Origin: Pseudomonadota bacterium
Lineage (GTDB): Bacteria > Desulfobacterota > Desulfobacteria > Desulfobacterales > RPRI01
NCBI GenBank assembly: GCA_043825875.1
Contig: JBDRRF010000031.1
Location: 70,087 to 134,086 of the forward strand
Length of the DNA: 64,000 bases
Direction: 5' to 3'
In this document: positions 34,015-55,712 of the stretch, piece by piece
Layout of the letters: the number at the start of each line of letters is the position of its first letter
Numbering within the stretch: the first letter of the stretch is position 1
Notes under the pieces: model-generated
What the model was told of the DNA's origin: nothing
The model's database searches: none
What the model saw: only the letters and a program-made list of their open reading frames with translations
Program-made: the position numbers and the translations under genes

Positions 34015-34082
34015 TTTATCCTCCATAAACAAATTTATTTATGTGGATCAGGATTTGTTTATATCAGTTATATTATCAATTG

Positions 34083-36187: not shown

Positions 36188-36256
36188 GCTTTGCCTTTAT
36201 AGAAACAGGTGAAAAGCCAAAAGATACAAATAATTTTATTTTATGCTGCAATAGTA

Positions 36257-36305: not shown

Positions 36306-36514
36306 GTTTTTTTATAAAGATTTTCAAAAAAGCTTAATATGGAATGCTAAGAAATTATAATAAATTAATTGCTGAGATATTCGTGTTGTATTTGCTTTTG
36401 GAGACCTATCAATAAGGTTCCAGAGGCAACAGGCTGGCAGTTTTTTTCAAATCGAGAATCTTTGGTTTACTGACTTAATATGCATGCTGTTAAATTATTG
36501 CAAGTCCGAATATC

Positions 36515-37870: not shown

Positions 37871-38349
37871 CTTTCATTTTCTGTTGAAAAGTACTGCATG
37901 GATGTTTTTTTTAGTTCTTTACGGCTGAATAATACTGTATAGTTTTTAACACCTGTTGCTTCTGACATTTTATCAATTGTTTTCAAACAGGATTCTTCGG
38001 TTTTAGCATGAACCATAGTATACAGGTTATATGGCCAATCCTTATTAGGATTTCTCCGGTAACAATGTGATACCTGCCTGAAGGAAGCGAGCTTTTTCCC
38101 GACTTGTTCAACAATATCTTCATCTACTTCCCAGGCTGCCATGGCATTTGCTTCAAAGCCTGAATTCTGATGACAAAGAGTTGCTCCAAAACGCCTTATA
38201 ACCCCTTTTTCTAAAAGCCGATTAAGAGTATCAAGCAAAGTCTTTTCAGTAATATTGAGCTGTTTTGCTATTTTGGCATATGGCCGTTTTAAAACAGGCA
38301 TATCGCCTTGTATTGAAGCGATAATTTTTTTTTCAAGCTCTGTAAGCAT
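37867..38349 (-). CDS. ahbB: Siroheme decarboxylase subunit, AhbB/NirH-like (Lrp/AsnC fold)
   Basis: GVIRRFGA, NAMAAW, VSHCYRR, WPYNLYTMVH, ELKKTSM. Confidence 0.8.
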   Translation of the reverse strand: MLTELEKKIIASIQGDMPVLKRPYAKIAKQLNITEKTLLDTLNRLLEKGVIRRFGATLCHQNSGFEANAMAAWEVDEDIVEQVGKKLASFRQVSHCYRRNPNKDWPYNLYTMVHAKTEESCLKTIDKMSEATGVKNYTVLFSRKELKKTSMQYFSTENES

Positions 38350-38387
38350 ATTTATATCATTAAATTATTATGTGTTAGCTTACAAGG

Positions 38388-38891
38388 TTATTCTTTTAAT
38401 TGGCCATACTTTTCAAGCAAATTTCCACTTGAACTAAAAGATATGGTATCAGACCCATATAAAATGCCGCCTAAGAGAATTTTCCCTTGTATGTTATAGT
38501 CAATTTGTTTCTTGCCGGTTTTAGAACCAGGCATAAGCAATTTTATTATTACAGAAATCAAATCAAAGGAGTTCGAGTTAATTTCTAAAGGTACAATTCC
38601 TGTGCCGTGAGCCGGAATAGAAAATATTTCATCAGAGACCGCAGAAGCAATATGCTGACCTGCAATTTCAACATCACATTCTATCGTTTTAATATTAAAC
38701 GGTATAAAATTTGGATTATATACCTCAATATTAACACTAAACACAGCTTCGAGGTTTTTTATTTCCTTAATCTGAATACTGTTTAGATGAACCTCGGGCT
38801 TTTTTAAAAGTTTTCCACAGCCAGAAAGGGTTAGCATTAACAAAAACAAACATAATATTCTAAGAATTGATAATGTAAGGTGTTTAGCCAT
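38388..38891 (-). CDS. LEA type 2 / WHy-domain lipoprotein
   Basis: Lipobox LSGC, P.V, NPN motif, IPA.G. Confidence 0.8.
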   Translation of the reverse strand: MAKHLTLSILRILCLFLLMLTLSGCGKLLKKPEVHLNSIQIKEIKNLEAVFSVNIEVYNPNFIPFNIKTIECDVEIAGQHIASAVSDEIFSIPAHGTGIVPLEINSNSFDLISVIIKLLMPGSKTGKKQIDYNIQGKILLGGILYGSDTISFSSSGNLLEKYGQLKE

Positions 38892-39096
38892 TTTATTTAT
38901 TATTTACAATTAAATATATATGCCTAATAAATCCAACAAGATTATATCCATTAATAACTTAAGTCTTGTATTATGATAGCGCTTATAGGTCAATAATTTT
39001 TATAAAAAGAAGTCCGACTCCATATATATAACCCTTCTCCCACTATTTAAAAAGCTATAAATACACTCTATAAATAACATGAATATACATTGAAAT

Positions 39097-39117
39097 TATC
39101 TATTGGACAAATAGATA
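39097..39117. promoter_or_regulatory. Candidate operator upstream of the 13-gene operon
   Basis: Perfect 8-5-8 inverted repeat TATCTATT-GGACA-AATAGATA. Confidence 0.35.
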
Positions 39118-39258
39118 TTATATCTTGTAGTTGTTATGTGCCTATATAGTCATATTTGAAGTTTAAGAGAGTAAAAATTATATTTTATATAATAAACCGT
39201 ATGCTTCATTTCAACTTAAGGCAAAAGACTCATATCAAATTTAATTGCGGATAAATAT

Positions 39259-40095
39259 ATGTTTGCAGGTATAGATATAGGATCAATGACAGCAAAATGC
39301 GTCATTTTAAATGAATCGCAAATTACTTCCTGCGTTGTCATTCCTACTGATTCAAATCCAAAATTAGCCGGAATAACCGTATTTGAAAAGGCACTTGATG
39401 CGATTGAATGCACTATTAAAGAAATCAAGCGAATTGTGGGTACCGGATACGGTCGCGTATCCCTTGATTTTTTTGATCAAACAATAACGGAATTAAGCTG
39501 CCAGGCTAAAGGGGTTCGTTATTTGAATCCTGCCATCGAAGGTATTATTGATATAGGTGGCCAGGACAGTAAGGCTATTAAACTCAAACGTGATGGAACA
39601 ATTGATGACTTTAGCATGAATGACCGTTGTGCGGCCGGAACCGGGCGTTTTTTAGATGCTATGGCAAAAGCTCTTAAAACAGATACGGAATCTTTCAGCA
39701 ATTATTGTCAGGCCTCAAGGAAACCATGCTCAATTAACAGCACTTGTGTTGTATTTGCAGAATCGGAGGTGATTTCTCTTCTTGCTGCCGGAGAAACCAG
39801 AGAAGATATTGCGGCAGGACTTAATGAAAGCATAGCAAGACGTATTGGCACCCTGGTTAGACGTATAGGTCTTAACCGTAATGTCGCTTTTGTCGGTGGT
39901 GTTGCCAGAAATGACGGATTACGGTTGGCTTTGGAAAAGTATTTAAAAATTAAATTTACTGCAATTTCAGAAGATCCTCAGATTACGGGAGCTCTGGGCG
40001 CATCAATAATTGCAAAAGAAGGATATTTGGGCAGCAATAAAATAAATGATATGAATACAAAAAATATTTTGAGTGAAAGGAGAATATTTATTTAA
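39259..40095 (+). CDS. ATP-dependent [4Fe-4S] activase (HgdC/BcrAD/YjiL ASKHA family), probable reductase for the double-cubane protein
   Basis: GIDIGS, TGYGR, DIGGQDSK, MNDRCAAGTG, STCVVFAESEVIS. Confidence 0.92.
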   Translation: MFAGIDIGSMTAKCVILNESQITSCVVIPTDSNPKLAGITVFEKALDAIECTIKEIKRIVGTGYGRVSLDFFDQTITELSCQAKGVRYLNPAIEGIIDIGGQDSKAIKLKRDGTIDDFSMNDRCAAGTGRFLDAMAKALKTDTESFSNYCQASRKPCSINSTCVVFAESEVISLLAAGETREDIAAGLNESIARRIGTLVRRIGLNRNVAFVGGVARNDGLRLALEKYLKIKFTAISEDPQITGALGASIIAKEGYLGSNKINDMNTKNILSERRIFI

Positions 40096-42171
40096 ATGAA
40101 ATTTAAATTATTAAAACTTTTAGGACTGGGCTTTCTGGCTTTATGCCTGTTTATGCCTCAGAGTGTATGGGCACAAGAGGATGAAGATTGCCCGGACTGT
40201 CCTAAAAAAGAAGATTCTATAGATGATGAACGTGTTAAGCTGGGAGATGTTTTTGTCCACGCTTTTGGCGGGGGTGCAGTAACATATACTCCTACCAGTA
40301 CTTTAGTGGATGTGGATAAATATGTCAAAGCAGGAAAAGTAGAAAAAGTAGAAGATATACTTATGAACATTGCCGGAATTGATGTGTTGAAAAGTTCCGG
40401 AGCTCCTGATGCACAGGCTGTTGTTATGATGAGAGGGTTTGATGACAGCCGTTTTATTGTGGCAATGGACGGAAGACCACTAACAGGTTCAACCGGAAAG
40501 CAAAATACAACAATAGATTGGTCTGCTTTACCTTTGAGTGATATCGAAAAGATAGAGATTATCAGAGGTGGTGCATCAGCCGCTTATGAAAGTGCAGAAG
40601 GCGGTGTTATAAATATCATTACAAAAAAAGGAAGAAAAAGAGACTCTCCGGTTCCAAGACTGATTTATACGCAGGATTATTCGGCAAATCTTGATTACAC
40701 CAATGCAATTTCACATAGCGAAAGAGTCAACGTGGATGGAGGTGTGGGGGGTCTTACCTATTATTTAAATTACGGACACCGCGACGATGAAGCGTATTTG
40801 AATAATAATTATTTCTCTGGTGAAGACTATTCGGCCAGGTTTAATTATCTCTTCCCCTTTCAAGGAATTTTGTTCTTTAGTTATAAAGGCTCATCCACGG
40901 AAACGGGGAATAATGTAGTAAACTGGCCCGGTGTTGCAGGATATGATCCGGATTATCCTAAAGTTCCCGAAGATGCGGATACGATAAGATATAGGGCGAT
41001 ATCCTACGATTATCCTGGTAGAAATTACAAGGAAAGATCCGTAAAGCATATGGATGTGGCTTTTGAGCAGCCGATAAAGGATACAAAGTTAAAAATATAC
41101 TACTACAATACTCAAAATTATGAAAAACTTTACTATTTTACATCTACGGGTGTTCCCATGACATATGGCGGTGATGAGATAACCGAAAGGCATGTCGGAG
41201 GGGGTATCAAATGGTCTTTGTATCCTTTTAAAAATAATTCACTCACACTCGGGTATAATTTTAAAAGAACGGAAGCCAAGGAATTACATGATATTTTTAG
41301 AATCCATGCGGGATATTTTGAAGACTTGTGGAATATTTCCGATAAATGGATGATGAAAACCGGCCTGCGTGTTTCAAAGGCAAGACAGCAAACTTATCCT
41401 TTTAAGCTTTCCGATGAAGCGGCTTCTTCAAGGCATTTATACAATGACTGGTTCATCTTACCAAAATTTGCCTTAACATATAATTTCAATCCGGAAACCA
41501 ATGTATATGTATCCGTTGCCAAGGACTATGACACTCCAGGGTGCTGAGATGGCTCTGCTATGTCTGCCGGCGGCAAACAAAAAAAACTTGAATATGAAAC
41601 AACGTGGCAATATGAAACCGGAATTTATCATCGTTTTACAGAAAATATCGATAACAGATTTGTAGTTTATTATACTGATATCACAGATTACGTTACAATA
41701 AACAGAGCTGATGTAATTCATAACAGCACATGGAGTGGATGGAATATCGATACCGTAAGGTTCTGGGGAATTGAATATGAATTTAACATAAATTGTAAGA
41801 AAATGACTGCTTTTGGAAACTATACATATGTTGATAACGAAGTAAAAGAAGATGATCCCACAAAATTAGTAGACTTTTTAGTGGAATTACCACCTAAGCA
41901 TAAGATTAATCTTAGTTTAAGATATCATCTTAGCGATTCTGTACAATTTTCCTGGGATCAGCGTTACGTTGGCAAGAGATACAGTGAAGCAGGATATACT
42001 CTTAGCGAATATACAACATCGGATATCGGTGTGCAGTATTCATTTTATAAGAACAAAGCAAAGCTAAACGCTTATATCAATAATTTGTTCGGGGAAAATT
42101 ACGAGCAAACATACGGTTATCAGATGAAACGCCAAATTTATGGTTTAACATTTAAATATACATTCTTTTAA
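40096..42171 (+). CDS. TonB-dependent receptor with in-frame TGA at 41545-41547, putative selenoprotein (Cys-Sec), 691 aa
   Basis: Signal peptide, plug motifs MRGFD...DGRP, IEKIEIIRG...GGVINIITKK; ORFs 40096-41547 and 41560-42171 share one frame with one TGA between; ends ...FKYTFF. Confidence 0.8.
41561..41579 (+). other. Putative bacterial SECIS hairpin for TGA 41545
   Basis: TGTCTGCC-GGC-GGCAAACA (7 of 8 pairs), G-led apical loop about 21 nt after the TGA. Confidence 0.55.
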
Positions 42172-42177
42172 TTATTT

Positions 42178-44007
42178 ATGAAAAAACGAACCGTTAGTAT
42201 TTTGAAATTAAAATTTATCTATATTGTAAACATCAGTTGTGTATTGATTCTGCTGCCTTTTTTTAATGGTATCCTTAATGCAAAAGAAAAAATAATCAAA
42301 GAAGAAACCATTAAAATTGATACAAACAAGGATGGGAAGATTGATCAGTTAGTCTATCTGGATGCAGGTGGAAAAGTATTTAAGGTAGAAAATGACGGCA
42401 ATGCCGATGGAATAATGGACAGGTTCCAGTATTATGAAAATGGCAAACCAGTGCGTGTTGAAAGAGATCTTGATTTTAATCAAAAGATCGACTGCCGGGA
42501 TTTTATCAAAGATGGCAAAAGAGTCAGGCAGGAAAAGGACAGCACAGGCAATGGCAAAATCGATCAGATTATATACTTTGACAAGAAAGAAAATCCTTTA
42601 AAGATTGAAAAGGATTCTACAGGCGACGCTTATTTCGATACTATTATCTATTTTGATAAGGGAGTAATTGCAAGTTCAACAAAAGATACAAAAGCAGACG
42701 GAAAAATAAATGTATGGGAAACATATCAAAACGGAAAGCGTTTTGAAAGAAAAGAAGATATGGACGGTGATGGGCTGGTTGAAAAATTCATATTGTTTGA
42801 TGGCGAAGGTCTTGTAAAAGAAATCAGGATGGATTCGGACAAAAGCGGTAATATGGATACTTTCCGGTTTTTTGAAAAAGGAGATATCGTTTTACAGAAA
42901 AAGGATATGGATTATGACGGCTGGTTTGAAACCGTAATTATATTTAAAAACGGAAAAATATATGAAGAACAAAAAGATTCAAACAATGACAGGGTATTTG
43001 ATATAACACTCAAGTTTAAAAACGAAAAGCCTTTTTACCAGGAAAAAGACACTGATTTTGATAAAACAGCGGACTTCTTCTGTGATTTCGATTCAAAAGG
43101 ACTTCCGGCAGTAATCAGGGAAGACAGCAGGTATACAGGAAAAATAGATCGAACAAGATATTTTGAAAAGGGCGAGATAAGTAAAATGGAATATGATTCA
43201 CAAGGAGATGAATTCATAGATCAGGTAACCTTTTTTAAAAACAGTAAACCGAGTTTGCAGACACTTGATGAAAATAAAGACACAAAGCCTGATATAAAGA
43301 TTTTTTTCAACAAAAAGGGAGAAAAACAAAAGGTTGAAAGTGATACGAATTATAACGGCAAATCTGATACATGGCAGTACTACGAAAATGAAAAAATCGT
43401 AAGAGTGGAAAAAGATGAAAATGAAAACGGGGCAGTTGATCATAAACTGTATTTTGACAAAAACGAAAACAGAATAAAACTGCTTACGGATCAGGATCAC
43501 AATGGCAGATTTGAAACCACACAGTGGTTTAACCTTAAAGATTGGGATGTGGTTATAGAAACTGATATCGATGGAGATAAAAACACCGATACCCGTCATT
43601 TCTACAAGGATGGTATTTTAAGAGTAAAAGAAATTGATGAAAATGCCGACGGGAAACCGGATCTTGTTGAATATTACGACAAAGACAAAAAGCTTGTAAA
43701 GAGTAAGGAAGATGTCGGGTACACCGGTATTTTAAATACTGTCTGGCATTATGACGGAAAGCAGCAGGCAGTTCTCGCCGAAAAGGATGTTGACGGAGAC
43801 GGCAGGATTGATACCTGGTTTTACTATGACAAGGATCGTGTAACAAGAGTTGAGGAAGATTCAAACCATGACGGCAAACCGGACATCTGGGAAGAATATG
43901 ATGAATCCGAAGCACTGGTAAAAAAATCAAAAGATCTGGATTATGACGGAATTGTCGATGTGATAGAAGACAAGACAAATAATGATAATTTAAACATTAA
44001 TAAATAA
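42178..44007 (+). CDS. Exported acidic tandem-repeat protein (about 24-aa repeats with DxxxDGxxD)
   Basis: Signal-like N-terminus, then roughly 20 or more repeats such as DTNKDGKID, DMDGDGLVE, DVDGDGRID, DSNHDGKPD. Confidence 0.8.
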   Translation: MKKRTVSILKLKFIYIVNISCVLILLPFFNGILNAKEKIIKEETIKIDTNKDGKIDQLVYLDAGGKVFKVENDGNADGIMDRFQYYENGKPVRVERDLDFNQKIDCRDFIKDGKRVRQEKDSTGNGKIDQIIYFDKKENPLKIEKDSTGDAYFDTIIYFDKGVIASSTKDTKADGKINVWETYQNGKRFERKEDMDGDGLVEKFILFDGEGLVKEIRMDSDKSGNMDTFRFFEKGDIVLQKKDMDYDGWFETVIIFKNGKIYEEQKDSNNDRVFDITLKFKNEKPFYQEKDTDFDKTADFFCDFDSKGLPAVIREDSRYTGKIDRTRYFEKGEISKMEYDSQGDEFIDQVTFFKNSKPSLQTLDENKDTKPDIKIFFNKKGEKQKVESDTNYNGKSDTWQYYENEKIVRVEKDENENGAVDHKLYFDKNENRIKLLTDQDHNGRFETTQWFNLKDWDVVIETDIDGDKNTDTRHFYKDGILRVKEIDENADGKPDLVEYYDKDKKLVKSKEDVGYTGILNTVWHYDGKQQAVLAEKDVDGDGRIDTWFYYDKDRVTRVEEDSNHDGKPDIWEEYDESEALVKKSKDLDYDGIVDVIEDKTNNDNLNINK

Positions 44008-44023
44008 CAGGGGGTGTATCGAT

Positions 44024-44641
44024 ATGCTCGAATTCTTTTCGAAGGGCGGTATCTGCATGTGGCCGATTCTTCTGTGTTCGGTTATATCATTGGCTATTTT
44101 TATAGAGCGTCTTATACGGATCGGCAAGATGCGTAAGCGCGGACAGGGGCTTGAGTATAAGGTGGCTGAGAAACTGAAAAACAGGGATGATCAAAATGCT
44201 TTTGCGATTGCAGGTCAGAGCAATTCACCTATTGGACGGGTGTTGGTAAAAGCACTGGAAGTAAAAGACCAGGACAGGGAAACCATTGAGACCGTTATTG
44301 TCCATGCGACCGATGAAGAGGTTCAGGGCCTTTCACGATATCTTCAGGCTCTTGCAACAATGGGAAATATAGTACCTATGATGGGACTTTTAGGTACGGT
44401 TATGGGTATGATTAAAGCATTTATGGTTATCCAGGAAATGGGAGGCAAGGTCAACTCTTCAGTTCTTGCCGGAGGTATCTGGGAGGCTATGCTGACAACA
44501 GCATTCGGCCTTGCTGTAGCTCTTCCTATTGTTGTTGCTCACAGCTATCTTCTTTCAATGGTAAATGGCTATGAGTCCAGAATTCAGCAGGGAAGTGTTT
44601 TGTTTTTGAAAACCATATCATCTCTTAGAAACAAATCTTAA
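44024..44641 (+). CDS. exbB: ExbB/TolQ proton-channel protein
   Basis: GG..MWPI, PMMGLLGTV.GMI, GGIWEAMLTTAFGL. Confidence 0.92.
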   Translation: MLEFFSKGGICMWPILLCSVISLAIFIERLIRIGKMRKRGQGLEYKVAEKLKNRDDQNAFAIAGQSNSPIGRVLVKALEVKDQDRETIETVIVHATDEEVQGLSRYLQALATMGNIVPMMGLLGTVMGMIKAFMVIQEMGGKVNSSVLAGGIWEAMLTTAFGLAVALPIVVAHSYLLSMVNGYESRIQQGSVLFLKTISSLRNKS

Positions 44642-44653
44642 AAGGATTGCTTT

Positions 44654-45061
44654 ATGATTAAAAGCCGTAAAAAGAGGGCAATTTATGAGGTGCAGATGCC
44701 GCTTACCTCGCTTATTGATATTATTTTCATGCTGCTTATATATTTTCTTTTGACCACAAATTTCATGGTGGATGAAGGAATAAAGATCAAGCTTCCCCAG
44801 GCAAAAGCATCAAAGCCCCAGGTGGAGGAATCCATCACTATTTTTGTTGATAAAGATGGCAGAACATATCTGAACGAACAGGAAGTCGAGATAGGCGAAC
44901 TTTTCAAGAAGGTTAAGGAAATGGTTGGAAACGATAAGGATAAACTGGTAGTAGTCAGATCCGACAGGGGAGTAATACTTAACAAGGTGGTCAAGGTCAT
45001 GGATGTTGCCAAGGCTGCCGGAGCCGGCAGGCTTTGCCTTGCTACGGAAAAGGATTTGTAA
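44654..45061 (+). CDS. exbD: ExbD/TolR protein
   Basis: LTSLIDIIFMLLIYF, LP.A, RSD...VVKVMD. Confidence 0.92.
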   Translation: MIKSRKKRAIYEVQMPLTSLIDIIFMLLIYFLLTTNFMVDEGIKIKLPQAKASKPQVEESITIFVDKDGRTYLNEQEVEIGELFKKVKEMVGNDKDKLVVVRSDRGVILNKVVKVMDVAKAAGAGRLCLATEKDL

Positions 45062-45066
45062 TTGTC

Positions 45067-45792
45067 ATGGAAACTACATGGGGAACAAATATTATTGGTG
45101 ACCGTTACGATAGAAAAAAAAATGCAAACTGGCTTCTAAGAGGACTGATCGGAATTTCTTTGGGGGTCCATTTGATAGCGGTTTTGCATGTTTCAGGGCT
45201 ATATAAGTCAAGCATGATATCATTTATAGAGTTAAGTATGGAAGATATTTCAAAGTCTGTTTCAAGAGATATTCCAAGACCCCGTCACAAACCGAAACCT
45301 GTTTCCGTCCCGAAAGAGATTCAAAAGCTCAAAATACAAACAAGGGTTATGCCAAGCTTCAAACCTATCAAAATAGACAACATAAATAATAACTATTCAA
45401 GCAAAATGACCGAACAGATAAGTGCTTCCGGGATTTTAAAAGGCTCTGCTTTGGATCTTGCCGCTCTTGATCCGGGAGTATCAGACGGATTAAAGGATGT
45501 AATAACGAAAAAAGATTATTTTGATCTTGTTCAGCTCAGGATAGAAAGCAAAAAAGAATATCCGAGAATAGCAAAGATGAATCGGATAGAGGGTCGGTCA
45601 ACCGTGGAATTTGTTGTCGGACTTGACGGTAGTATATCCGGACTATCGATTGTAGGAACATCAAGAGACAGAACTTTAGACAATGCCGTTATTGAAGCCG
45701 TAAAAAAAGCATCACCTTTTCCAAGGCCTCCTTTAAGACTTTTTAGCGGGCCTATTCCGATTGAAATTACTGTCGTTTTTGAAATAACATAA
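45067..45792 (+). CDS. tonB: TonB energy transducer
   Basis: TM with S...H (SLGVH), Pro-rich linker, YP..A....IEG...VEF and SPFP.PP C-domain. Confidence 0.88.
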   Translation: METTWGTNIIGDRYDRKKNANWLLRGLIGISLGVHLIAVLHVSGLYKSSMISFIELSMEDISKSVSRDIPRPRHKPKPVSVPKEIQKLKIQTRVMPSFKPIKIDNINNNYSSKMTEQISASGILKGSALDLAALDPGVSDGLKDVITKKDYFDLVQLRIESKKEYPRIAKMNRIEGRSTVEFVVGLDGSISGLSIVGTSRDRTLDNAVIEAVKKASPFPRPPLRLFSGPIPIEITVVFEIT

Positions 45793-45803
45793 CAGGAGAC
45801 CTG

Positions 45804-46961
45804 ATGAAAGAATTCAAGGTTAATGATACTATTCAGGAAGTAAGAACAAATCTGGCTTTAGAACTTGAAATGGCGAAAGATGAGGGAAGAAAAGTTGTAG
45901 GTTCAATGTGTTCTTATTTTCCAAAGGAACTTGTATGGGCAGCCGATGCGATTTCAGTCGGTCTTTGCGGAACTACTGAAGAGCCGATTGCAGCAGCAGA
46001 AGAAGTGCTGCCTGCTGACTTATGCCCCATGGTTAAAGCAACTTACGGCCGTGCTGTTTCAAACACCTGCCCAATATTTCCGCTTACCGATTGTATTGTG
46101 GGTGAAACAACATGCGATGGCAGAAAAAAAATGTATGAACTACTTGCATGGGAAAAGCCTATGCACATTATGGAACTCCCGCAGATGTCTGAAGAAAAGG
46201 AAGCTCTTGTCCACTGGATAGCGGAGGTTAAAAAGCTTAAAGTATTTATTGAAAAACAACTTGGGGTAAAAATAACAGACGAAAAATTAAAACAGGCCAT
46301 CAAAGATGTAAATGAAGAACGCAGGCTTTTAGTTGAAATTCATAAATGCCGTAAGTCACATCCAGTGCCGGTTATGGGTGTTGACCTTGTTGGATTAACC
46401 ACCAAATTCGCCTATACGGTTGATCGCAAACCTTATAGAGAAAAACTTGGCAATCTTCTCGAAGGGCTAAAAACAAAAATACAAAATAATGAATATGCCT
46501 GTTCTTCTGACAGACCAAGAATCCTCTGGACGGGTTTGGGAAACAGCCTGGGATGTGACAAGGTTTTAAAACTGGTGGAGGAATGCGGAGGGGTTGTCGT
46601 CTGTCAGGAAGGTTGTGGCGGTATTACGCGCATGGAAGATATGGTGGATGAAAACAAAGATCCTATTGAAGCGATTGCCCAAAGATATCTAAGAGTAACT
46701 TGTTCCTGTATGACGCCGAATAATACAAGGTTTAAAGATATCGACAGGCTTATAACGGAATATAATATACAGGGTGTTATAGATCTTACATGGCAGTTTT
46801 GCCATACTTTTAATATCGAATCTTACAGGGTAAAAGAAGTTGTTAAAGGAAAGCATGACCTTCCTTTTCTCCATATCGTAACGGATTTTTCGCAGTCCGA
46901 TATCGGACAGCTCAGAGTACGCATTGAAGGTTTTCTGGAGCAGATTTCAATGGGAAATTAG
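45804..46961 (+). CDS. Double-cubane-cluster-type anaerobic reductase (YjiM / 2-hydroxyacyl-CoA dehydratase superfamily)
   Basis: [58 protein letters not shown]; no second dehydratase subunit in the operon. Confidence 0.8.
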
Positions 46962-46962
46962 C

Positions 46963-47745
46963 ATGTGTCTCATTGAGGCGGAAAAACTTACAAAAGTATA
47001 TGCGGATGGAAAAAGCAAAAATGTAATTGCAATCGAAGACTTTAATCTCAAAGTTGAGGAACGTGAATTTACCAGCATAGTCGGTCCTAGCGGATGCGGA
47101 AAATCAACTTTTCTATTATTGGTTTCGGGCTTAGAAAAAGCAACGGCAGGCAAGCTATATATTAAAGGCCAACCGGTAAACGGTCCCGATCCTTTAAGGT
47201 CTATAGTATTTCAGGAATATCTTCTTTTCCCATGGAAAACTGTCAGAGGTAATGTTGAGTTCGGTCTGGAACTTAAAAGAATACCGAAAAACAAACGCCG
47301 GGAAATTGCTTCCGTCTATATTGAACTCGTAGGTCTGGAGGGTTTTGAAGACCGCTATCCTCACGAGTTGAGCGGAGGCATGAAACAGCGGGTAGCAATT
47401 GCAAGGGCGCTTGTAAATAAGCCCAAGGTAATTTTGCTTGACGAACCATTCGGATCATTGGATGCACTCACCCGTGAAGGCCTTCAGACAGAGCTTTTGC
47501 GAATATGGCATGAGGCAAAATGCACAGTACTTTTTGTAACCCATAGCATAAGCGAGGCGGTTTATTTGTCTGACAAAGTTGCAATTATGACCAAGCGGCC
47601 AGGAAAGATTAAAGAATTGATTAAAATTGATCTTCCCCGGCCACGCACCAGGGATATGTTTGTTTCGCCTGAGTTTAGAGAATATGAAAGATATCTTAAA
47701 GAACTTGTATGGGAAGAATTTCAAGAAGGCAACAATGAGGTTTAA
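46963..47745 (+). CDS. ABC ATPase, TauB/SsuB type
   Basis: [32 protein letters not shown]. Confidence 0.93.
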
Positions 47746-48505
47746 ATACAGAAAAATTATCTCTCCCATATGTGTTCTTGCATTATGGGAAATCATCGGC
47801 CGTTTTATCTGGGTGGATCCTTTCTTTTTTCCGCCTCCGTCCGAAATGCTTAAGGAATTGTATGCAATGATAATTACCGGTGAGGTATTTCCGCACATTG
47901 CTATTAGTATTGCCCGTGCATTTAGCGGATATATTCTCGCAGCAATTGCAGGTCTGACTATAGGACTTCTTGTAGCATGGTCAACGGTTGTCGAAGATAT
48001 CATCGATCCGCTTATCGAACTGATCAGGCCTATTTCCACATTTGCGTTGGTACCTGTTATGTTTATCTGGTTCGGTATAGGAAACGGCTCTAAAGTGGCG
48101 ATTATTTTTAAAGCATGTTTTTTCCCTATAGTCTTAAATACAATTGCAGGAATCAAAGGTGTAGATAAAAAACTCATTCAGGCTGCGCGTTCACTTGGCG
48201 CAAATGGTTTTCAGCTATGGGTTAAAGTACTTATACCGGCAGCCCTCCCCATGATTGTCACCGGTATGAGAATTTCAACCGCCATGTCAATGCTTGCAAT
48301 TGTGGGAGTTGAAATGCTTGCTGCCGATTCCGGAATAGGCTTTCTAGTTATAGATGCACAACGAACATTTGCCACAGCGAGAATGTTTGCAGGAATTATC
48401 GTAATTTCATCTCTAGGATTTAGTATGGATCGTATTGCCCGGATTATTCAAAGCAGAGTACTGGCTTGGCATACCGAAACCTCTTTATCCGGGGGAATGG
48501 CGTAA
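47735..48505 (+). CDS. ABC permease, TauC/SsuC type
   Basis: PPPS, WFGIG, AARSLGA, PAALP, GIGF. Confidence 0.92.
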
Positions 48506-48531
48506 ATAAACAGAGTTTATAAGGAATCAGA

Positions 48532-49512
48532 ATGTATTTTAAAAAAATTACAATTATGATCATATCCGTTACGGTAATTGTATTACTAAATTTATATCCC
48601 TGCACAGCCAAAGACTTTCCTCTGGGCAGCATGAAGGTAACATACGGCAGAAGTATAGACGATCTTCCTCTCTATGTAGGGCTTGAAGAAGGCTTTTGGG
48701 AAAAAGAAGGACTCAAAGTCGAGCTTGTAAGACTTGTAGGTGAACAAAACATTATCGCTTCAGCGCTTCATGGCGACATAAATGCAGGTCATATTGCACC
48801 TGCATCATTTTTTCATGCTGCAAACAGAAAAATTCCCATAAAGATCGTTGCATGGCTCGGCAGGGCGCATAATGGAACAAGATGCGGTCTTCATTCGGAT
48901 GCAACAAATAAGGAAATAAAAGACATTACGGATTTAAAAGGCAAGAGAGTTGCAACCAGTGGGGATATAAGTGCCAAGATGATTCTTCGCGAAACTTTGA
49001 TAAAGGCCGGCTTAAGCTTTGATGATATTCATGAAATAAAGGGGATCAAGCTTGATGATGCCATGAAGCATGAAGCTGCCTTAAGATCAAAAGGCGTTGA
49101 TGTAATAGTTGCCTGAGATCCCACTGCGACCATGCTGGAGATGCATGGTGCGAGTCGGCTGCTTTTTTCATTTAATGACGCAATCCCGGGATATGTATTT
49201 TCAGGATTGTTTTTTACGGATAAGTATCTTCGTGAAAACCCGGAAAAAGCAAAAGCCTTTTTACGGGGCCTTGTCAGGTCATTTGATTATATAAAAAACA
49301 ATGAAAAAGAAGCAAGACGCTGGATACCGAAATATTGCGGAGTCGAAATGGAAGTGGCTATGCGCTCTGCCCTGAGGCATTTTGAAGACGGAAGGGAACC
49401 TATTAAACAGTTATATAAACAGCAGGATATTATGATAGAAAACGGCCATCTTCCGGGAAGAATTCCCATAGAAGATTTTATCGATTACAGTTATCTGCCA
49501 GATAATAATTGA
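48532..49512 (+). CDS. ABC substrate-binding protein (SsuA/NMT1 type) with in-frame TGA at 49114-49116, putative selenoprotein, 326 aa
   Basis: ORFs 48532-49116 and 49132-49512 share one frame; read-through gives VDVIVA-U-DPTAT; PLYVGLEEG, DLKGKRVA, ENPE..KAFLRGL motifs span both halves. Confidence 0.8.
49120..49158 (+). other. Putative bacterial SECIS hairpin for TGA 49114
   Basis: Perfect stem ACCATGC (49129-49135) / GCATGGT (49143-49149), loop TGGAGAT, extendable lower stem; loop about 19 nt after the TGA. Confidence 0.7.
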
Positions 49513-49558
49513 TTTTAAAATTGGGAGAAGAAATATAATTATTACGGAGGTCAAGACT

Positions 49559-51745
49559 ATGAAAAAAAGAATCTTCATCAATGAAGAATCAGCTAAGGGA
49601 TATACAAGGCGACAATTTCTTAAATACCTTGAGCTTGCAGGAATCGGTGTAACAATAGGCGGTGCAGGCTTTCTTGCAGGATGCAGTGATAAAGTTGATT
49701 CTCTTGCCGGGACAAAGGAAGTCATCACAAGATGCGGTCTTTGCGGATCGGATTGCGGCATGAAGGCATATATCAAAAATGATCGTGTGATTGCAGTTTC
49801 TCCTAACAAGGATGACCCTCATAGCAAAGGATTTATGTGCGATATGGGGCTTGCAAATGTTGAACAAACATATTCTCCGGATAGAATTCTTAATCCAGGA
49901 AAGCGGGTCGGTGATAAATGGGTGGATATTTCGTGGGATGAAGCATTAAATATTATTTCGGAAAAACTTTCAAAACTTAAAAATGATTATGGCCCTCAAT
50001 CAACAGTCTGCCACTATGGAGTTACCGAGGTTAGAGCACCTTTTTACAGGCAGTTATTCAGGCGGTTTTCAAATGTTTACGGAACTCCAAATTTTACCGG
50101 CTGCGGCAGCCAGTGCGCTGTTTCAACAATGATGGCAAAAAAATACAGCATAGGTTCTGTTCACCCTGATTATGAAAATACTAAATGCATGGTTCAATGG
50201 GGAAGCAATCCGTCATCTTCAAGCCTTCTTGAATGGTTTAGTGAAGTACTGCCTGCCAGGGAAAGAGGTGCAAAACTTATCTGCATTGATCCAAGAGCAA
50301 ATCCCATGACTCAAATGGCAGATATTCATCTTAAGCCGCGTCCCGGAACAGACGGGGTGCTTGCACTGGCAATGACAAATATAATTTTAGAAAATAATCT
50401 TTATAACAGGGATACTGTAGAAAAATATGGCACAGGTTTTTTCGAATATGAAGAACTTGTAAAACAATACAAGCCTAAGCGAGCGGAAGCCATAACCGGA
50501 ATTTTGGCAAAAGATATTATAAATGCAACAATGATGTATGCCGAAAATTCACCTGCTTGTATTGAAACAGGCAATGCATTGGAACTCCATATAAACGGAG
50601 TGCAGACAATCAGGTCTGTTATGTTGATACAAGCCTTATGTGGAAATGTGAATGTAAAGGGAGGTATGATTTCTTCGGGAGAAAAAGTCGGGCTTGCGGA
50701 TTTGGAATTAGATAATTATAAGCCATTTACATCCCAAGGATATTCTGCCGACAGCTATCCTGTTTTATGGCAGTCAAGAAAAATGGTAACGGCAAATCTT
50801 TTGCCGGATACCGTGTTAACAAAAAAGCCATATCCGATTAAAGCGCTTATGGTTATAGGTGGCAATCCGATTATTACGGGTCCTAATTCTTCACACCAGA
50901 GAAAAGCATATAAAGAAATGGATATGGTGGTTGTCTATGATCTTTTTATGACAGAAACTGCCAAAATGGCAGATATATTCTTACCTGCTACATCATGTCT
51001 TGAAAGAGATAATTTCAAGGCAAGGGACAGGATATATCTGACACCAAAGGTTATAGCCGAACAGGGAAATGCTTGGCCGGAATGGAAGCTATGGTTTGGG
51101 CTGGCAAATAAGATGGGTTATGAAAATGAATTTCCATGGGCGACCCTGGATGAAGCTATAGACGAACACCTCTCTCCCATCAATGTTACCGCTTCGGATC
51201 TTAGGATGAATTTTAATGGTATTGATCATCCTTTAAAGTCGGGAAGCATGAAAAAGCTGGAGAATAAAATAAAGACTCCTTCCGGAAAAATTGAATTCCA
51301 TTCACAAACACTGGCAGACGCAGGATACAATCCTCTGCCTGACTATGTTGAGCCATACGAAGGACCTGCTGACAAAAAACTTCTTGCAAAATATCCGCTT
51401 CTTATGACCTCCGGCATACGGATACCATACTATATTCATTCCCAGTTTAGAAATCTTGCTTCGCTTAAAGCAAAATCACCAGGTCCTGTGATTGAGATGA
51501 ATCCGGCCGATGCTTCATCTCTTGGAATATCCGAAGGAAATAATGTATCAATAAGCTCTCTTAGAGGCAGCATCCAGGCAAAGGCACAACTTAATAAAAG
51601 CCTGAAATCCGGAATAGTAGCCATGTCTCATGGATGGTCAAAAAGTAATGTAAACGAATTGACAGACGATTCGGCTCAATCTCTGGACCCGATAAGCTCT
51701 TTTCCGGGGTATAGAGGATTTTTGTGTAAAGTTGAAAAAGTATAG
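49559..51745 (+). CDS. Tat-exported Mo/W-bisPGD oxidoreductase catalytic subunit
   Basis: TRRQFLK Tat motif plus LAGC lipobox, CGLCGSDC..C FS0 cluster, GTPN...SQC likely metal-ligand Cys, TPSGKIEF, HSQFRN. Confidence 0.9.
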   Translation: MKKRIFINEESAKGYTRRQFLKYLELAGIGVTIGGAGFLAGCSDKVDSLAGTKEVITRCGLCGSDCGMKAYIKNDRVIAVSPNKDDPHSKGFMCDMGLANVEQTYSPDRILNPGKRVGDKWVDISWDEALNIISEKLSKLKNDYGPQSTVCHYGVTEVRAPFYRQLFRRFSNVYGTPNFTGCGSQCAVSTMMAKKYSIGSVHPDYENTKCMVQWGSNPSSSSLLEWFSEVLPARERGAKLICIDPRANPMTQMADIHLKPRPGTDGVLALAMTNIILENNLYNRDTVEKYGTGFFEYEELVKQYKPKRAEAITGILAKDIINATMMYAENSPACIETGNALELHINGVQTIRSVMLIQALCGNVNVKGGMISSGEKVGLADLELDNYKPFTSQGYSADSYPVLWQSRKMVTANLLPDTVLTKKPYPIKALMVIGGNPIITGPNSSHQRKAYKEMDMVVVYDLFMTETAKMADIFLPATSCLERDNFKARDRIYLTPKVIAEQGNAWPEWKLWFGLANKMGYENEFPWATLDEAIDEHLSPINVTASDLRMNFNGIDHPLKSGSMKKLENKIKTPSGKIEFHSQTLADAGYNPLPDYVEPYEGPADKKLLAKYPLLMTSGIRIPYYIHSQFRNLASLKAKSPGPVIEMNPADASSLGISEGNNVSISSLRGSIQAKAQLNKSLKSGIVAMSHGWSKSNVNELTDDSAQSLDPISSFPGYRGFLCKVEKV

Positions 51746-52517
51746 ATTGAAACATCACAAGGCAGATGAATTTAAAATAACACGAAGGGTCTTTTTGAAA
51801 AATACCGGTATGTTGGCTACCACAGCATCTTTTCCGATATTAAGAAGTAAAGAAGATGTCTTAAGGCCGCCTGGTGCCGCATCTGATTTTCTTTCAAAAT
51901 GTATCAGATGCGGCAAATGTGTTGAAGCATGTCCTTATGATAGTATTCGTTTTTTAGGGGCCAATTCCGGTCTTAATATTTATACACCATATATAGATCC
52001 TGTAAAAACCCCCTGTTATTTATGCCGGACAACAGGGACAGACGGAAAATCAAAGCCTCTCGACAAATACTTGCGCTGTGGAAAAGCATGCCCGACAGGT
52101 GCTTTAAAACCCATACCAAACGATATAGAAGTACTATCCAAGCTTCCAAAAGAAATGAAAATCGGGACAGCAAACCTTAACAGGAAGCTTTGTGTGGCCT
52201 GGCAGTTTAGTTTTTGTGGGGAATGTTATTTTAACTGCCCACTTAAAGACAAGGCACTTCTATCAAGGCCGCCTGATGAAGAAGTATCAAGAAGCGGCAT
52301 ATCGCCTTATGTTAATCAAAAAGCCTGTATCGGATGTGGCCGGTGTGTTTTTGTCTGTCCGGTAAGAAAATTCGATGCAAAATTTATAAACGAAACTAAT
52401 GTGCCGGATTATTTTCAGCTAAGATACGGCGCTCTTGTGGAAAGAATTATTGCACAAAATAGAGATAATGCACAATTGCCGGCAATTAGAGTATTAAAAA
52501 ACAAGTCAGACAGATGA
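51732..52517 (+). CDS. NapG/MauM-like periplasmic polyferredoxin
   Basis: TRRVFLK, LRPPGA, CIRCGKCVEACP, CIGCGRCVFVCP. Confidence 0.85.
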   Translation: MKKYRLKHHKADEFKITRRVFLKNTGMLATTASFPILRSKEDVLRPPGAASDFLSKCIRCGKCVEACPYDSIRFLGANSGLNIYTPYIDPVKTPCYLCRTTGTDGKSKPLDKYLRCGKACPTGALKPIPNDIEVLSKLPKEMKIGTANLNRKLCVAWQFSFCGECYFNCPLKDKALLSRPPDEEVSRSGISPYVNQKACIGCGRCVFVCPVRKFDAKFINETNVPDYFQLRYGALVERIIAQNRDNAQLPAIRVLKNKSDR

Positions 52518-53383
52518 AGAGAAGTGAGAAGAAAAATCTTAAAATACTTCCATTAAGACGTATATCTCAGATAAGTATAATTCTCCTTATCATTGCCGTG
52601 CCCTTATACTCACAAAATCCGTATAACGGGTCACCCTCATTAATTGTAAAGGGTCAATTGCCGCCCCCTGCCATTTCGAAAGTATCCGGTGATACATGGA
52701 GTTTTTCAATAGGAAATTTTAATATTATTCATCCCGCAGCTTTTTTTGATTTTGTGTTTTCAGCAAAATCCGTTTCTTCTTCCATGCTCATCGCTGTTTT
52801 AATTCCTTTATTGATAACATTACTTTTTGGCAGGGTATTTTGTTCCTGGCTTTGCCCAATCGGTTTTATACTGGAACTTTCAACAAAAATTAATGCGATT
52901 TTGAAAAAAAAAGGATTTACCCGTAAAATATATATAAGAAATTTTCGTTATATAATTCTTGCAGTATCCCTTCTTACAGCATTATTATTAGGAATTCCCA
53001 TAATTTCAATCTTTGATCCTGCCCATCTTCTCGGCAGGGAACTTTCCATGATATTTACCCATCAGGAAGTAAGTGTTGCCGGTCTTATATTTCTATTAGC
53101 TATACTTGTATTTGAAATATTATTTGTATCCCGCGCCTGGTGCAGGTTTTTTTGCCCGTCCGGGGCATGTCTGTCTCTAATTGGAGTTAATCGAAATTTT
53201 AAAATCAGAACAGATCAAAAAGAATGTGTAAATTGTAACCTATGCAGATCGGTGTGTTCTTATAATCTTGAGCCGGACAAGATAGTAAACTACACAACTT
53301 TACAGAGAGCGGTTTGTGATAATTGCGGTTTATGCAGGGATTCATGTCCGAAAGGAGCAATATCTTATGACTTTTGTATATAA
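52514..53383 (+). CDS. NapH/MauN-like membrane polyferredoxin (quinol-interacting)
   Basis: GRVFCSWLCP, RAWCRFFCP, two C-terminal CxxCxxCxxxC motifs, TM helices. Confidence 0.87.
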   Translation: MKRSEKKNLKILPLRRISQISIILLIIAVPLYSQNPYNGSPSLIVKGQLPPPAISKVSGDTWSFSIGNFNIIHPAAFFDFVFSAKSVSSSMLIAVLIPLLITLLFGRVFCSWLCPIGFILELSTKINAILKKKGFTRKIYIRNFRYIILAVSLLTALLLGIPIISIFDPAHLLGRELSMIFTHQEVSVAGLIFLLAILVFEILFVSRAWCRFFCPSGACLSLIGVNRNFKIRTDQKECVNCNLCRSVCSYNLEPDKIVNYTTLQRAVCDNCGLCRDSCPKGAISYDFCI

Positions 53384-53436
53384 AATTGCCACTGATTTTT
53401 CCCTTATGTAGTTATAAGTATTATATCGCATGGATG

Positions 53437-54102
53437 TTAATGTTTCGCACTGTTCTTAATTCCAGCCTCTTTTTTGATTGATTCAATATCGAGTTTTTGA
53501 ATCCATTCGGGAAGATTGCCAAACACTGTATGGAAGTTAAAGCCACCTTTTGTCATTTCAGAAATAGCCTCATCCTTAGGCCATCCCTGGATTGCAATTC
53601 TATATAAAGCACTCATTGTTCCTGTACGATCTGCGCCGTGCAGGCAATGTACCAGTACCGGGGTATAATTCGGGTCGGTTGCGATTTGTAGAAACCGGAT
53701 AATATCTTCTTGCTCAGGATGCCAGGCTTTCATATAGATGTGTTCATACTTTAATTCCGTATTTCCGATTTTGCTCCGATCCGAATGAAAAGTTCGGAGA
53801 TTTACCACTGTTTTAATTCCCATTTCTTTTAAATTCTTCATTCCATTGGCTGTAGGCTGGGCGCTTCGGTACAAATTATCGCTTACTTTGTGAAGATTTG
53901 GGACACCTTCTATCACAAGAGGCTGAGCCCAAGTTTCAGGACGTTTTAAGGCGGATTCATTTGCAAATGCAAAATTGACCAGAATTAAACAGAGAGCTAT
54001 AGTTATGGTCAGTTTAATTTTAAACGAAAAGCAATGAAAATATGGACGTGTTTGCAAGTCGTTTATTATGCCAGTTTTGCTGGAATAATTATTTTGTTCC
54101 AT
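53437..54102 (-). CDS. Cys-based (dual-specificity/tyrosine) phosphatase, probably exported
   Basis: LYRSAQP, HCLHGADRTG (CX5R); hydrophobic leader; start uncertain. Confidence 0.85.
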   Translation of the reverse strand: MEQNNYSSKTGIINDLQTRPYFHCFSFKIKLTITIALCLILVNFAFANESALKRPETWAQPLVIEGVPNLHKVSDNLYRSAQPTANGMKNLKEMGIKTVVNLRTFHSDRSKIGNTELKYEHIYMKAWHPEQEDIIRFLQIATDPNYTPVLVHCLHGADRTGTMSALYRIAIQGWPKDEAISEMTKGGFNFHTVFGNLPEWIQKLDIESIKKEAGIKNSAKH

Positions 54103-54802
54103 GCAGGTATCCCTTCCTTTCAGTTTCAGGTAGTTTTTCTATAGCATAACGCAACATAGTTCGAGGCATTTTTTTGTAGTATTTATCCAAAAATAATTCT
54201 TCGCTGGTTTTATTTCGTTTGCCGACTTCACGCAACATCCATCCTACGGCCTTGTGAATCAAGTCTTCCCGGTCATTTAATAATATTTCTGCAATTGCCA
54301 AAGTATCGAAGAAGTCATTTCTTTTGATGAAATGAAAAGTGGATATAATGCTGATTCTTCGTTCCCAGAGATCCTTTGAACGCACGAGTCTGTAAATAGG
54401 CTTTCTTTCTCTAATGAATAAATGAGCGCCTACAATGTGCTCTGCCGTACAGTCAACAAGATCCCAACTGTTTATGAATTTTGTGTGATTCAGGTAAGAA
54501 TGATATATTAACACTTTTCCAGAACTATTATTTTCTGAAGAATATTTTGCAACCAGTATCAACAATGCCAGTAGCCTGGCTTCATGGAAAGGAGATTTTA
54601 AAATATCGAGGGTATCATCCAAAGATATATTCCTGTATTCTCTTACGCATTTTCTTATAGCAGGAACACGAATCCCCAAAAACTTGTCTCCTTCTCCATA
54701 TTCTCCCTTGCCGGTTTTAAAAAATCGCTGTGAATGAGTTGCGATATCGCTATTGCTCAGCTGCTCTAACATACTCATGATTTGCTTAGTCTGATTGCTC
54801 AT
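54089..54802 (-). CDS. DNA alkylation repair protein (AlkD-like)
   Basis: FFKTGKGEYGEGD.FLG, WDLVD, KAVGWMLRE, MPRTMLRYAIE. Confidence 0.87.
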   Translation of the reverse strand: MSNQTKQIMSMLEQLSNSDIATHSQRFFKTGKGEYGEGDKFLGIRVPAIRKCVREYRNISLDDTLDILKSPFHEARLLALLILVAKYSSENNSSGKVLIYHSYLNHTKFINSWDLVDCTAEHIVGAHLFIRERKPIYRLVRSKDLWERRISIISTFHFIKRNDFFDTLAIAEILLNDREDLIHKAVGWMLREVGKRNKTSEELFLDKYYKKMPRTMLRYAIEKLPETERKGYLHGTK

Positions 54803-54808
54803 AACGGA

Positions 54809-55492: not shown

Positions 55493-55712
55493 ATGCTTCT
55501 CCTTTACAAAAACCCGAAAAAACTTGTTTAAATTATATAAAAAATCAATTGGTTGTCAACCGGTTTTTCCTGGTTTAACCGGAATGAGACCTAACAGAAG
55601 GGTTGTGGTTGTTTTTTGTTTATTGAAACGGGAAATATTATTGAAGATATTTATGTAGTCGAAAGTTTGGGAACAGATTTACGTCAATAGCTATGCCCGT
55701 TTTGCGAATAGC

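Follow-up and report, generated by a model that had tools for sequence, protein, structure and literature searches.

The window analysed here is a stretch of 64,000 nucleotides (assembly GCA_043825875.1, contig JBDRRF010000031.1, positions 70,087-134,086 of the forward strand) from a groundwater relative of sulfate reducers placed by GTDB in Desulfobacterota; Desulfobacterales; RPRI01, whose genome is 99.8% complete. At 39259-53383 it carries thirteen co-oriented plus-strand genes that overlap or are separated by gaps of at most 46 bp, and two of them, encoding a TonB-dependent receptor and a periplasmic substrate-binding protein, contain an in-frame TGA. A preliminary description made from the sequence alone had already delineated this tightly packed operon, and all thirteen of its genes were recovered when families were assigned by hidden Markov model scans (NCBIfam, Pfam) against curated bit-score cut-offs.

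The operon opens with the gene for an activase (archerase), ATP-dependent and of the kind that serves double-cubane reductases (39259..40095; TIGR00241, 257 bits against a cut-off of 125; PF01869), followed by the receptor, which is of the CU motif type and has Plug and barrel domains (40096..42171). Next to it lies the gene for an exported repeat protein of 609 amino acids (aa) (42178..44007), built of ~24-aa DxDxDG-type repeats and with weak matches to DUF6802 and Lsa25.6; this protein contains no Cys, adjoins the receptor wherever it occurs in the loci compared, and has DUF6802, FG-GAP, VCBS and EF-hand clusters as its atlas neighbours. ExbB (44024..44641; PF01618, 108 bits), ExbD (44654..45061; PF02472, 106 bits) and TonB (45034..45792; TIGR01352, 61.6 bits against 27) complete the first half. 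The second half begins with a double-cubane [8Fe-9S]-type reductase, here called DCCP1 (45804..46961; NF040772, 484 bits against 350), and an ATP-binding cassette (ABC) importer consisting of a NitT/TauT-type ATPase (46924..47745; ntrCD 251 bits and SaoA 248.6 bits, both under cut-off), a permease (47627..48505, with its real start probably near 47738; TauC 179 bits and SaoP 176.8 bits, both under cut-off) and the NMT1/SsuA-like binding protein (48532..49512). The last three genes encode a molybdo- or tungsto-pterin oxidoreductase of 728 aa, exported by twin-arginine translocation (Tat) (49559..51745; Tat motif TRRQFLK, Cys186 at the metal-ligand position), which may also be a lipoprotein, since LAGC follows its signal region; a NapG-like periplasmic poly-ferredoxin (51732..52517; Tat motif TRRVFLK; NF007012, 108 bits, under cut-off); and a NapH-like membrane quinol-dehydrogenase ferredoxin (52514..53383; NF007013, 127 bits, under cut-off; PF12801).

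Selenocysteine in the receptor and the binding protein

The genome encodes the selenocysteine (Sec) machinery whose presence the preliminary description had named as a check on its reading of the two TGAs: selA (603 bits), selB (378 bits), selD (381 bits, itself with one in-frame TGA) and tRNA-Sec were all found. The receptor matches the NF049946 profile over positions 2-683 of 683, straight across the TGA at 41545..41547 (Sec484), with 1106.4 bits (1099.7 in the genome search) against a cut-off of 700, and the motif PGCU (residues 481-484, CU being encoded by TGC-TGA) is kept in all eight receptor orthologs. A second match to PGCU, on the minus strand at 34608, lies in a stop-rich frame and was discarded as noise.

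In the binding protein, the TGA at 49114..49116 (Sec195, within AUDPTATMLEMHG) lies well ahead of the genuine stop, a TGA at 49510-49512, and it is present at the same column and followed by DP[TV]ATMLE in each of nine orthologous loci, at identities down to 41%. Among the matches listed from a collection of 5.8 billion proteins, 116 of 120 relatives end exactly before the Sec column, and the remaining four are full-length with Cys at that column, in VTCDPVATMLEMHG. The Sec codon has thus been read as a stop, leaving an annotation gap in which more than 100 database clusters of this protein are stored as 190-aa truncations. At both TGA sites the homologs have TGA or Cys and never Trp, the residue that would have spoken against the proposal.

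Hairpins had also been reported after both TGAs, and this holds well for the binding protein and less well for the receptor. Downstream of Sec195, a hairpin resembling a selenocysteine insertion sequence (SECIS) at 49120..49158 (apical stem ACCAUGC/GCAUGGU, loop UGGAGAU) has a 13-pair consensus over the nine loci, with one compensatory pair and three pairs that change from G-C to G-U. The corresponding element of the receptor, a candidate apical part of a SECIS located 20 nt past the TGA (41565..41575; UGCC-GGC-GGCA), is in the window just a 4-bp GC stem of -2.9 kcal/mol; in seven of the eight orthologs a GC hairpin with a G-rich loop (GGC, GGU or AGGG) starts 15-20 nt past the TGA, with stem sequences that differ in a region where the encoded peptide varies too. 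The single-sequence fold z-scores of the two hairpins are unremarkable (-1.3 and -1.2). From sequence evidence of this kind we accept both genes as encoding predicted selenoproteins, the SECIS evidence being weaker for the receptor.

The operon had been put forward as a candidate new selenoprotein-based one, and as to novelty the two proteins part ways. By its profile match the receptor is a full-length member of a curated family, NF049946, one of four Sec-receptor models in NCBIfam release 20 (NF049944, NF049945, NF049946 and NF049947), and so is not a new selenoprotein. The first Sec TonB receptor was reported by deep-Sep in Desulfosarcina sp. BuS5 and is of the FCYXU type, according to excerpts of that report (PMC12013277), and the FCYXU type is the sole Sec receptor type listed in excerpts of a 2026 review (PMC13188914). 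Our searches found no paper that names the CU receptor type or its gene context, and none that combines 'double-cubane' with 'TonB'. The binding protein, on the other hand, matches no NCBIfam model above cut-off (SsuA_fam 112 bits against 163.5, SaoX 59.3 against 300), and the review's table of Sec binding proteins holds SaoX, SaoB and BtuF only (PMC13188914); as far as our searches reach, it is an uncurated selenoprotein family, truncated in databases. A contig search for related loci returned, among the matches listed, one true ortholog (locus L026, discussed below), the other 79 being relatives of 21-29% identity.

The phylum also holds other Sec receptors. Six of them (L120-L125, from genomes G322, G066, G241, G362, G434 and G211) have one TGA each and score 380-430 bits on the CU model, under its cut-off.

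Four sulfur- or selenium-bearing residues of the CU receptor are invariant in the eight orthologs: C32 and C35, in a CP[DE]CP motif that reads CPDCP in the window, and C483 and U484 of the CU pair. The CPDCP motif follows the signal peptide directly and precedes the presumed TonB box, so that, from the general architecture of such receptors, this N-terminal tail is predicted to be periplasmic. Strands are well defined in the better-modelled C-terminal half of an AlphaFold2 model built from eight sequences; counted back from the last of them, with turns of 2-4 residues alternating with long loops, they would put the CU pair at the beginning of the loop that joins strands 13 and 14, which is extracellular loop 7. 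If the residue is exposed at the outer membrane, this would be an unusual site for a selenocysteine.

In the binding protein, Sec195 is accompanied by an invariant Cys118, within GT[RHK]CG[LI]H, and an invariant Ser143-Gly144. We take Sec195 to lie at the point where the chain returns from one lobe to the other, and the positions of Cys118 and Ser143-Gly144 presumably line the cleft in the relatives 3QSL, 4NMY, 3UIF and 2X26. Sec195 aligns with the Cys of TCDP (AUDP versus TCDP) in two above-cut-off SaoX proteins, the binding proteins encoded by selenocysteine-assisted organometallic (SAO) loci. Passages of the report by Haft and Gwadz, on the system of Clostridioides difficile and other anaerobes, describe a conserved Cys-192 in the SaoX pocket and propose that it binds metal (10.1101/2022.07.06.499078); the TCDP Cys appears to be this residue, judging from its position, since the C. 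difficile sequence lies outside our alignment.

Conservation and surroundings of the locus

Synteny had been suggested as a further check, and the gene set indeed recurs, rearranged, in three other families of the phylum. With the Sec machinery found and TGA or Cys at both sites, all the refuting conditions named in the preliminary description have come out in favour of its reading, which is supported at the level of architecture. Within the genus, genome G008 has all thirteen genes at 87-99% identity, and G011 has the operon through the binding protein, with the oxidoreductase and NapH present only as remnants. At this G011 locus (L022, 4854-5972) the molybdo-enzyme gene is cut to its first 49 codons and NapH is fragmented, the rest of the operon being intact. 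The third congener, G016, has the activase, the reductase, the ABC genes, the Sec binding protein, the CU receptor (44% identity) and three further open reading frames (ORFs), the last of which encodes a TonB C-terminal protein; the molybdo-enzyme module is not adjacent.

Outside the genus, the order of genes changes. In G298 (L116, family f95) the operon begins with an ortholog of DCCP2, a second double-cubane reductase described below, and continues with a TIM-barrel protein, the activase, DCCP1, the ABC genes, the Sec binding protein, the CU receptor, the repeat protein, ExbBD, TonB, the oxidoreductase (65% identity) and, after this molybdo-enzyme, a three-rhodanese protein. The same order is found up to the contig end in G427, of the same family. 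A second G298 locus (L119) has an intact CU receptor with NapG and NapH, and fragmented genes for the repeat protein, ExbB and the oxidoreductase. G394 (L118 and L126, family f118) carries a complete copy, all thirteen genes and an extra reductase, with the oxidoreductase first and NapG/NapH last. In two order-level relatives, G052 and the contig locus L026, the set consists only of the reductase, the ABC genes and the Sec binding protein, without the receptor.

All nine loci encode the reductase, the ATPase, the permease and the Sec binding protein; we therefore regard the reductase together with an ABC importer that uses a Sec binding protein as the invariant core. As judged from gene content, the receptor, repeat protein and Exb/TonB genes are a frequent, predicted outer-membrane extension of this core, and the oxidoreductase and its NapG and NapH partners make up a putative periplasmic module that is often present but can be dispensed with. 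In a sample of 401 genomes of the phylum, the CU receptor and the Sec binding protein occur together in four; a fifth genome has the binding protein alone, and the receptor by itself was seen in none.

Several smaller features were noted at these loci. The repeat-protein gene of G394 (L118:4098-7384) is split by an opposite-strand ORF of 484 aa that has no family match, and a stretch of ~33 aa from the split region recurs at the start of a 479-aa ORF between the oxidoreductase and the receptor; the insert may be a mobile insertion. Directly 3' of the Sec binding protein, the receptor-less loci carry a ~195-aa family without a Pfam or NCBIfam match (L024:5447-6034 and L026:10124-10705; 74% identity), and another such family, of 158-171 aa, lies beside the activase (L026:14121-14594 and L118:636-1148; 32% identity).

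The operon is flanked by genes unrelated to it: B12-radical SAM, siroheme decarboxylase and LEA_2 genes on one side, and phosphatase-like, DNA-alkylation repair and HAD genes on the other. An Rfam scan of 36000-56000 returned no riboswitch or known RNA, its sole two matches being at chance level, and promoter and terminator counts at the operon are those of shuffled sequence. The data sets listed as containing the stretch are groundwater and marine metagenomes, with no RNA set among them. Elsewhere the window contains a type II secretion and pseudopilin set at 48-4579 (type II secretion proteins E, F, G and K and N-methyl-motif proteins); two tandem genes for molybdenum hydroxylases of the xanthine-dehydrogenase family, on the minus strand at 25008-35540, within a resistance-nodulation-division efflux cluster (OEP, HlyD, AcrB) that has a TetR regulator at its end; and, at 57436-62372, a second TonB-dependent receptor, free of Sec, followed by a FecCD-type ABC importer (permease, ATPase and binding protein).

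Double-cubane reductases and the candidate substrate

The seven Cys residues of DCCP1 (36, 55, 74, 104, 271, 300 and 333) are spaced by 18, 18, 29, 166, 28 and 32, close but not identical to the canonical pattern, which excerpts of the Haft report quote as 19, 18-19, 29, 166-170, 32-34 and 32 (10.1101/2022.07.06.499078). The cellular role of double-cubane reductases has been open since their discovery in 2018, and a review, in the excerpts used here, states the physiological function of the family as unknown (PMC7317905). The host has a second reductase above the same cut-off, DCCP2. On another contig (C76:112000-124000; L145), a minus-strand operon encodes a ferredoxin, an aldehyde:ferredoxin oxidoreductase, DCCP2, an activase, SelD and YedF (TIGR03527, 233 bits against 110). 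DCCP2 is 77% identical to the second reductase of L026 and 54% identical to the first gene of the G298 operon.

Of 301 genomes sampled in the phylum, 92 have an ortholog of DCCP2, and in 11 of the 39 genomes in which both genes were found, spread over seven families, DCCP2 lies within 7 kb of selD. These counts come from cross-referencing the positions of the two genes by hand, and the eleven loci were compared by tblastn; a narrower test, confined to 1.5-kb flanks of the 30 best selD loci, had found the reductase in one of 30 and is superseded by the wider cross-reference. Near the eleven gene pairs, the activase was found at 10 loci, YedF at 8, the Se/S carrier DUF3343 and a carbohydrate-kinase-like gene at 7 each and YedE at 6, usually as one co-oriented cluster; in G038, for example, the order is DCCP2, activase, YedF, YedE, DUF3343, kinase-like gene, SelD.

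The importer module and this selenium neighbourhood meet in L026, a contig of Desulfobacterium sp. There, DCCP1, the ATPase, the permease and the Sec binding protein lie inside a selenium island, with a LysR gene, YedE (TIGR04112, 486 bits against 200), a TusA-like ORF, DUF3343 and the kinase-like gene upstream and with DCCP2 and its activase downstream. As a gene-context argument, the selD-YedF-YedE island, noted in the host and also at L206-L215, gives the double-cubane family a candidate physiological context.

Taken together, the genomic association between the paralogous reductase and selD, YedE and YedF and the position of the importer module within the L026 island make selenium the favoured substrate. 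Earlier, the substrate had been given as a soft metal, a metalloid or a sulfur or selenium compound, and of that list the gene context points to selenium specifically. We therefore propose, as a tentative reading that we hold at a little under an even chance, that the operon specifies a TonB-energised, selenocysteine-assisted pathway that scavenges and reduces a thiophilic substrate in short supply, most probably a selenium species. The receptor would capture the substrate on its Cys-Sec pair, where extracellular loop 7 has its base, ExbB, ExbD and TonB would drive it through the receptor, and the periplasmic CPDCP motif and then Sec195 and Cys118 of the binding protein would take it over by thiol/selenol exchange. 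Where present, the Tat-exported molybdo-enzyme with its NapG- and NapH-like partners could couple a redox conversion of the substrate in the periplasm to the quinone pool. The NitT/TauT-type ABC transporter would import the substrate, and the double-cubane reductase, charged by its activase at the expense of ATP, would reduce it at very low potential, yielding, if the substrate is selenium, selenide for SelD. The sequences themselves show the genes, the two Sec codons and how well these are conserved, the synteny, and DCCP2 lying beside selD, YedE and YedF; we infer the topology of the Cys and Sec sites, the order of the relay, the substrate and the reaction.

Several considerations are consistent with this scheme. 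In its favour stand the two Sec proteins, the joint occurrence of receptor and binding protein, the full gene set of G394 and the core module found at all nine loci, and also, in G298, the DCCP2 ortholog at the head of the receptor operon and the three-rhodanese protein near its end. The elemental selenium/selenide couple lies at about -0.73 V (a value for which our literature search returned no confirmation), and the reduction chemistry of selenium would fit an ATP-driven, low-potential reductase. Importers of the NitT/TauT family carry anions such as nitrate, sulfonates and bicarbonate; this importer type, together with the kept Ser143-Gly144, would accord with an anionic chalcogen species more readily than with a metal cation. 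It may seem paradoxical that selenium should be needed to obtain selenium, yet the phylum already tolerates such an arrangement: of 151 genomes sampled, 141 yielded a selD, and with two exceptions the matches listed each have one in-frame TGA, which makes SelD itself a selenoprotein almost throughout the phylum.

For the acquisition of trace selenium by selenium-rich anaerobes, YedE is so far no more than a bioinformatic candidate. The locus and the selD-linked paralog would supply a concrete chain of receptor, binding protein, importer, reductase and SelD. In its fullest form, to which we give slightly less credence than to the scavenging pathway as such, the proposal is that this is the first dedicated system for high-affinity selenium acquisition in bacteria, in which receptor and binding protein hold selenium on Sec, the double-cubane reductase makes selenide for SelD in an energetically demanding reduction, and the widespread DCCP2-activase pair of the selenium islands represents the core of this chemistry.

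A substantial set of observations weighs against selenium scavenging. The system is rare, being found in 5 of 401 genomes as against 141 of 151 for selD. The operon of the window has no adjoining selenium gene, the island lying on another contig, and in G052 the importer module and DCCP2 are ~2 Mb apart. Physical links between module and island amount to two events, L026 and G298, and of these the L026 arrangement looks like a single insertion, as the module is flanked by a duplication of the 3' end of the kinase-like gene (L026:5041-5958), repeated downstream of the module at L026:11281-11606 with 92-97% protein identity. DCCP1 and DCCP2 are just 35% identical to each other. That the CU pair lies in loop 7 is read from strand counting in a poor model (mean pLDDT, the predicted local distance difference test score, 48.6). 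In the binding protein, His113, His121 and His205 are kept beside Cys118 and Sec195, a pattern equally fit for binding a soft metal. No characterised family (Fdh, PhsA/Psr, acetylene hydratase, Arr, Ynf and Nap) can be assigned to the molybdo-enzyme, as every NCBIfam match is under cut-off; among solved structures its best relative is acetylene hydratase (269 bits), and formate dehydrogenases and the Thermus polysulfide/thiosulfate reductase come next. Finally, the six Sec receptors outside the CU type have TP_methylase (5 of 6 loci), DUF4198 (3 of 6) and FmdE (2 of 6) as neighbours, and neither the reductase nor this type of ABC importer lies beside any of them; they possibly belong to a different uptake context, that of a metal or tetrapyrrole.

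The similarity to acetylene hydratase deserves a comment, as double-cubane proteins reduce acetylene in vitro. In the hydratase, what we take to be the catalytic Asp follows the second cluster Cys, and a Gly occupies that place here; an acetylene role for the molybdo-enzyme was set aside because the protein is Tat-exported and lacks this Asp.

The strongest competitor, which we consider unlikely though a serious contender, is that the operon takes up a soft metal, metalloid or organometallic compound (Ni, Co, Cu, Hg, As or thio-species of Mo or W). This would extend the interpretation that Haft gave to SAO. Sec and Cys would then out-compete sulfide for the metal, and the double-cubane reductase would release or transform it in the cytoplasm. 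The homology of the Sec column to the Cys-Asp-Pro of SaoX, the metal site proposed in the Haft excerpts, speaks for this idea, as do the three invariant histidines and the DUF4198, TP_methylase and FmdE genes beside the other Sec-receptor types. The CPxCP and CU pairs also resemble the paired Cys residues of the mer relay. However, NitT/TauT importers carry anions and differ from the cluster A and NikA types that serve metals, no gene for a metallochaperone, an efflux pump, a MerB-like lyase or a metal regulator turned up near any of the nine loci, and the neighbours that recur across lineages are genes of selenium and sulfur trafficking.

Those same neighbours are compatible with sulfur, since YedE, DUF3343 and the TusA/DsrE families all have sulfur-handling relatives, and the uptake and reduction of sulfane sulfur or an organosulfur compound (polysulfide, thiosulfate, a sulfonate or a disulfide) is the next alternative. 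Sec would serve as a better sulfur carrier, the periplasmic enzyme would resemble Psr or Phs, and the sulfur compound, once imported, would be the substrate of the reductase. Of known types, SsuA and TauC come closest to the binding protein and permease, the molybdo-enzyme reaches 297 bits against PhsA and 176 against the Thermus enzyme 2VPW, and the three-rhodanese protein follows the oxidoreductase in G298. We nevertheless think sulfur improbable as the substrate: a sulfate reducer living in sulfide scarcely needs TonB-dependent, high-affinity capture of sulfur, all the sulfur-family models stay under cut-off, the neighbouring YedE and YedF pass selenium-specific NCBIfam models rather than the thiosulfate TsuA models, and the paralogous reductase is linked to selD specifically.

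A chance juxtaposition without a unified pathway, in which the TonB receptor cassette, the ABC importer, the reductase and the respiratory molybdo-enzyme each have a function of their own, would agree with the dispensability of the molybdo-enzyme (a remnant in G011, not adjacent in G016, absent from the receptor-less loci) and with the missing receptor in G052 and L026, but is hard to credit when thirteen genes are retained in G394 despite rearrangement, the receptor never occurs without the Sec binding protein in the 401-genome sample and the gene spacing fits a single operon.

Relationship to known systems

A known setting close to the selenium-scavenging proposal is the selenium-utilisation neighbourhood SelD-YedE-YedF-DUF3343-LysR_Se of Lin et al. 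(2015), who proposed YedE as a transporter; dehydratase-like and activase genes stand in their Table 1 and are not discussed by the authors (PMC5322559). DCCP2 and its activase belong to this neighbourhood in eleven genomes, and in L026 the importer module is embedded in it; the operon of the window differs in having no SelD, YedE or YedF neighbour. With the DCCP and DCCP-R proteins of Carboxydothermus hydrogenoformans (PMC7317905), the system shares the NF040772 reductase, the TIGR00241 activase and seven Cys residues in near-canonical spacing. Unlike the DCCP studied there, the reductase here is tied by gene context to an import route.

In its working principle, the proposed relay also resembles the mer thiol relay (MerP-MerT-MerA) and the Sud/Psr system of Wolinella, in which a thiophilic substrate is handed from compartment to compartment along paired Cys sites to a reductase, and in Sud/Psr a periplasmic molybdo-enzyme is likewise paired with a rhodanese-type carrier. 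The likeness is confined to the principle; sequence homology between these systems and the operon was not detected.

The relationship to the SAO loci is of a different kind. The preliminary description saw in the operon a diderm counterpart of SAO, and a distant kinship is borne out, whereas membership is not. Both systems occur in strictly anaerobic, Sec-using hosts and have a NitT/TauT-like ABC importer with Sec or Cys in the pocket of the binding protein, and the Sec column of the present protein is homologous to the Cys-Asp-Pro of SaoX. In a true SAO locus the genes for reductase, ATPase and permease follow one another as they do here, the encoded proteins being 44%, 39% and 29% identical. 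However, the models for SaoA (248.6 bits against 360), SaoP (176.8 against 295) and SaoX (59.3 against 300) all stay under cut-off, the gate of the permease has Gly (IVGVEM) where true SaoP has Sec (SVIUAEF), and the binding protein is 19-21% identical to SaoX overall; the CC motif of SaoX is replaced by Ser-Gly, its Cys-50 is absent, and the second Cys is the protein's own, C118. The SaoB, SaoC, SaoT, SaoE, SaoD and SaoL models match none of the thirteen proteins of the operon (E <= 1e-5), no SaoP above cut-off was found anywhere in the genome, and a genome-wide search for SaoL gave no match, though the control of that search was silent. The locus also adds a Sec receptor, ExbBD-TonB, the repeat protein and a periplasmic molybdo-enzyme. 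The shared Sec column and gene order, combined with the failed Sao cut-offs, mark the system as a relative of the SAO import core that stands outside SAO proper; we regard the operon as a diderm variant, hitherto undescribed, with kinship to that core. If the selenium reading is correct, SAO itself might be reread as a system of selenium or chalcogen trafficking rather than of organometallic chemistry.

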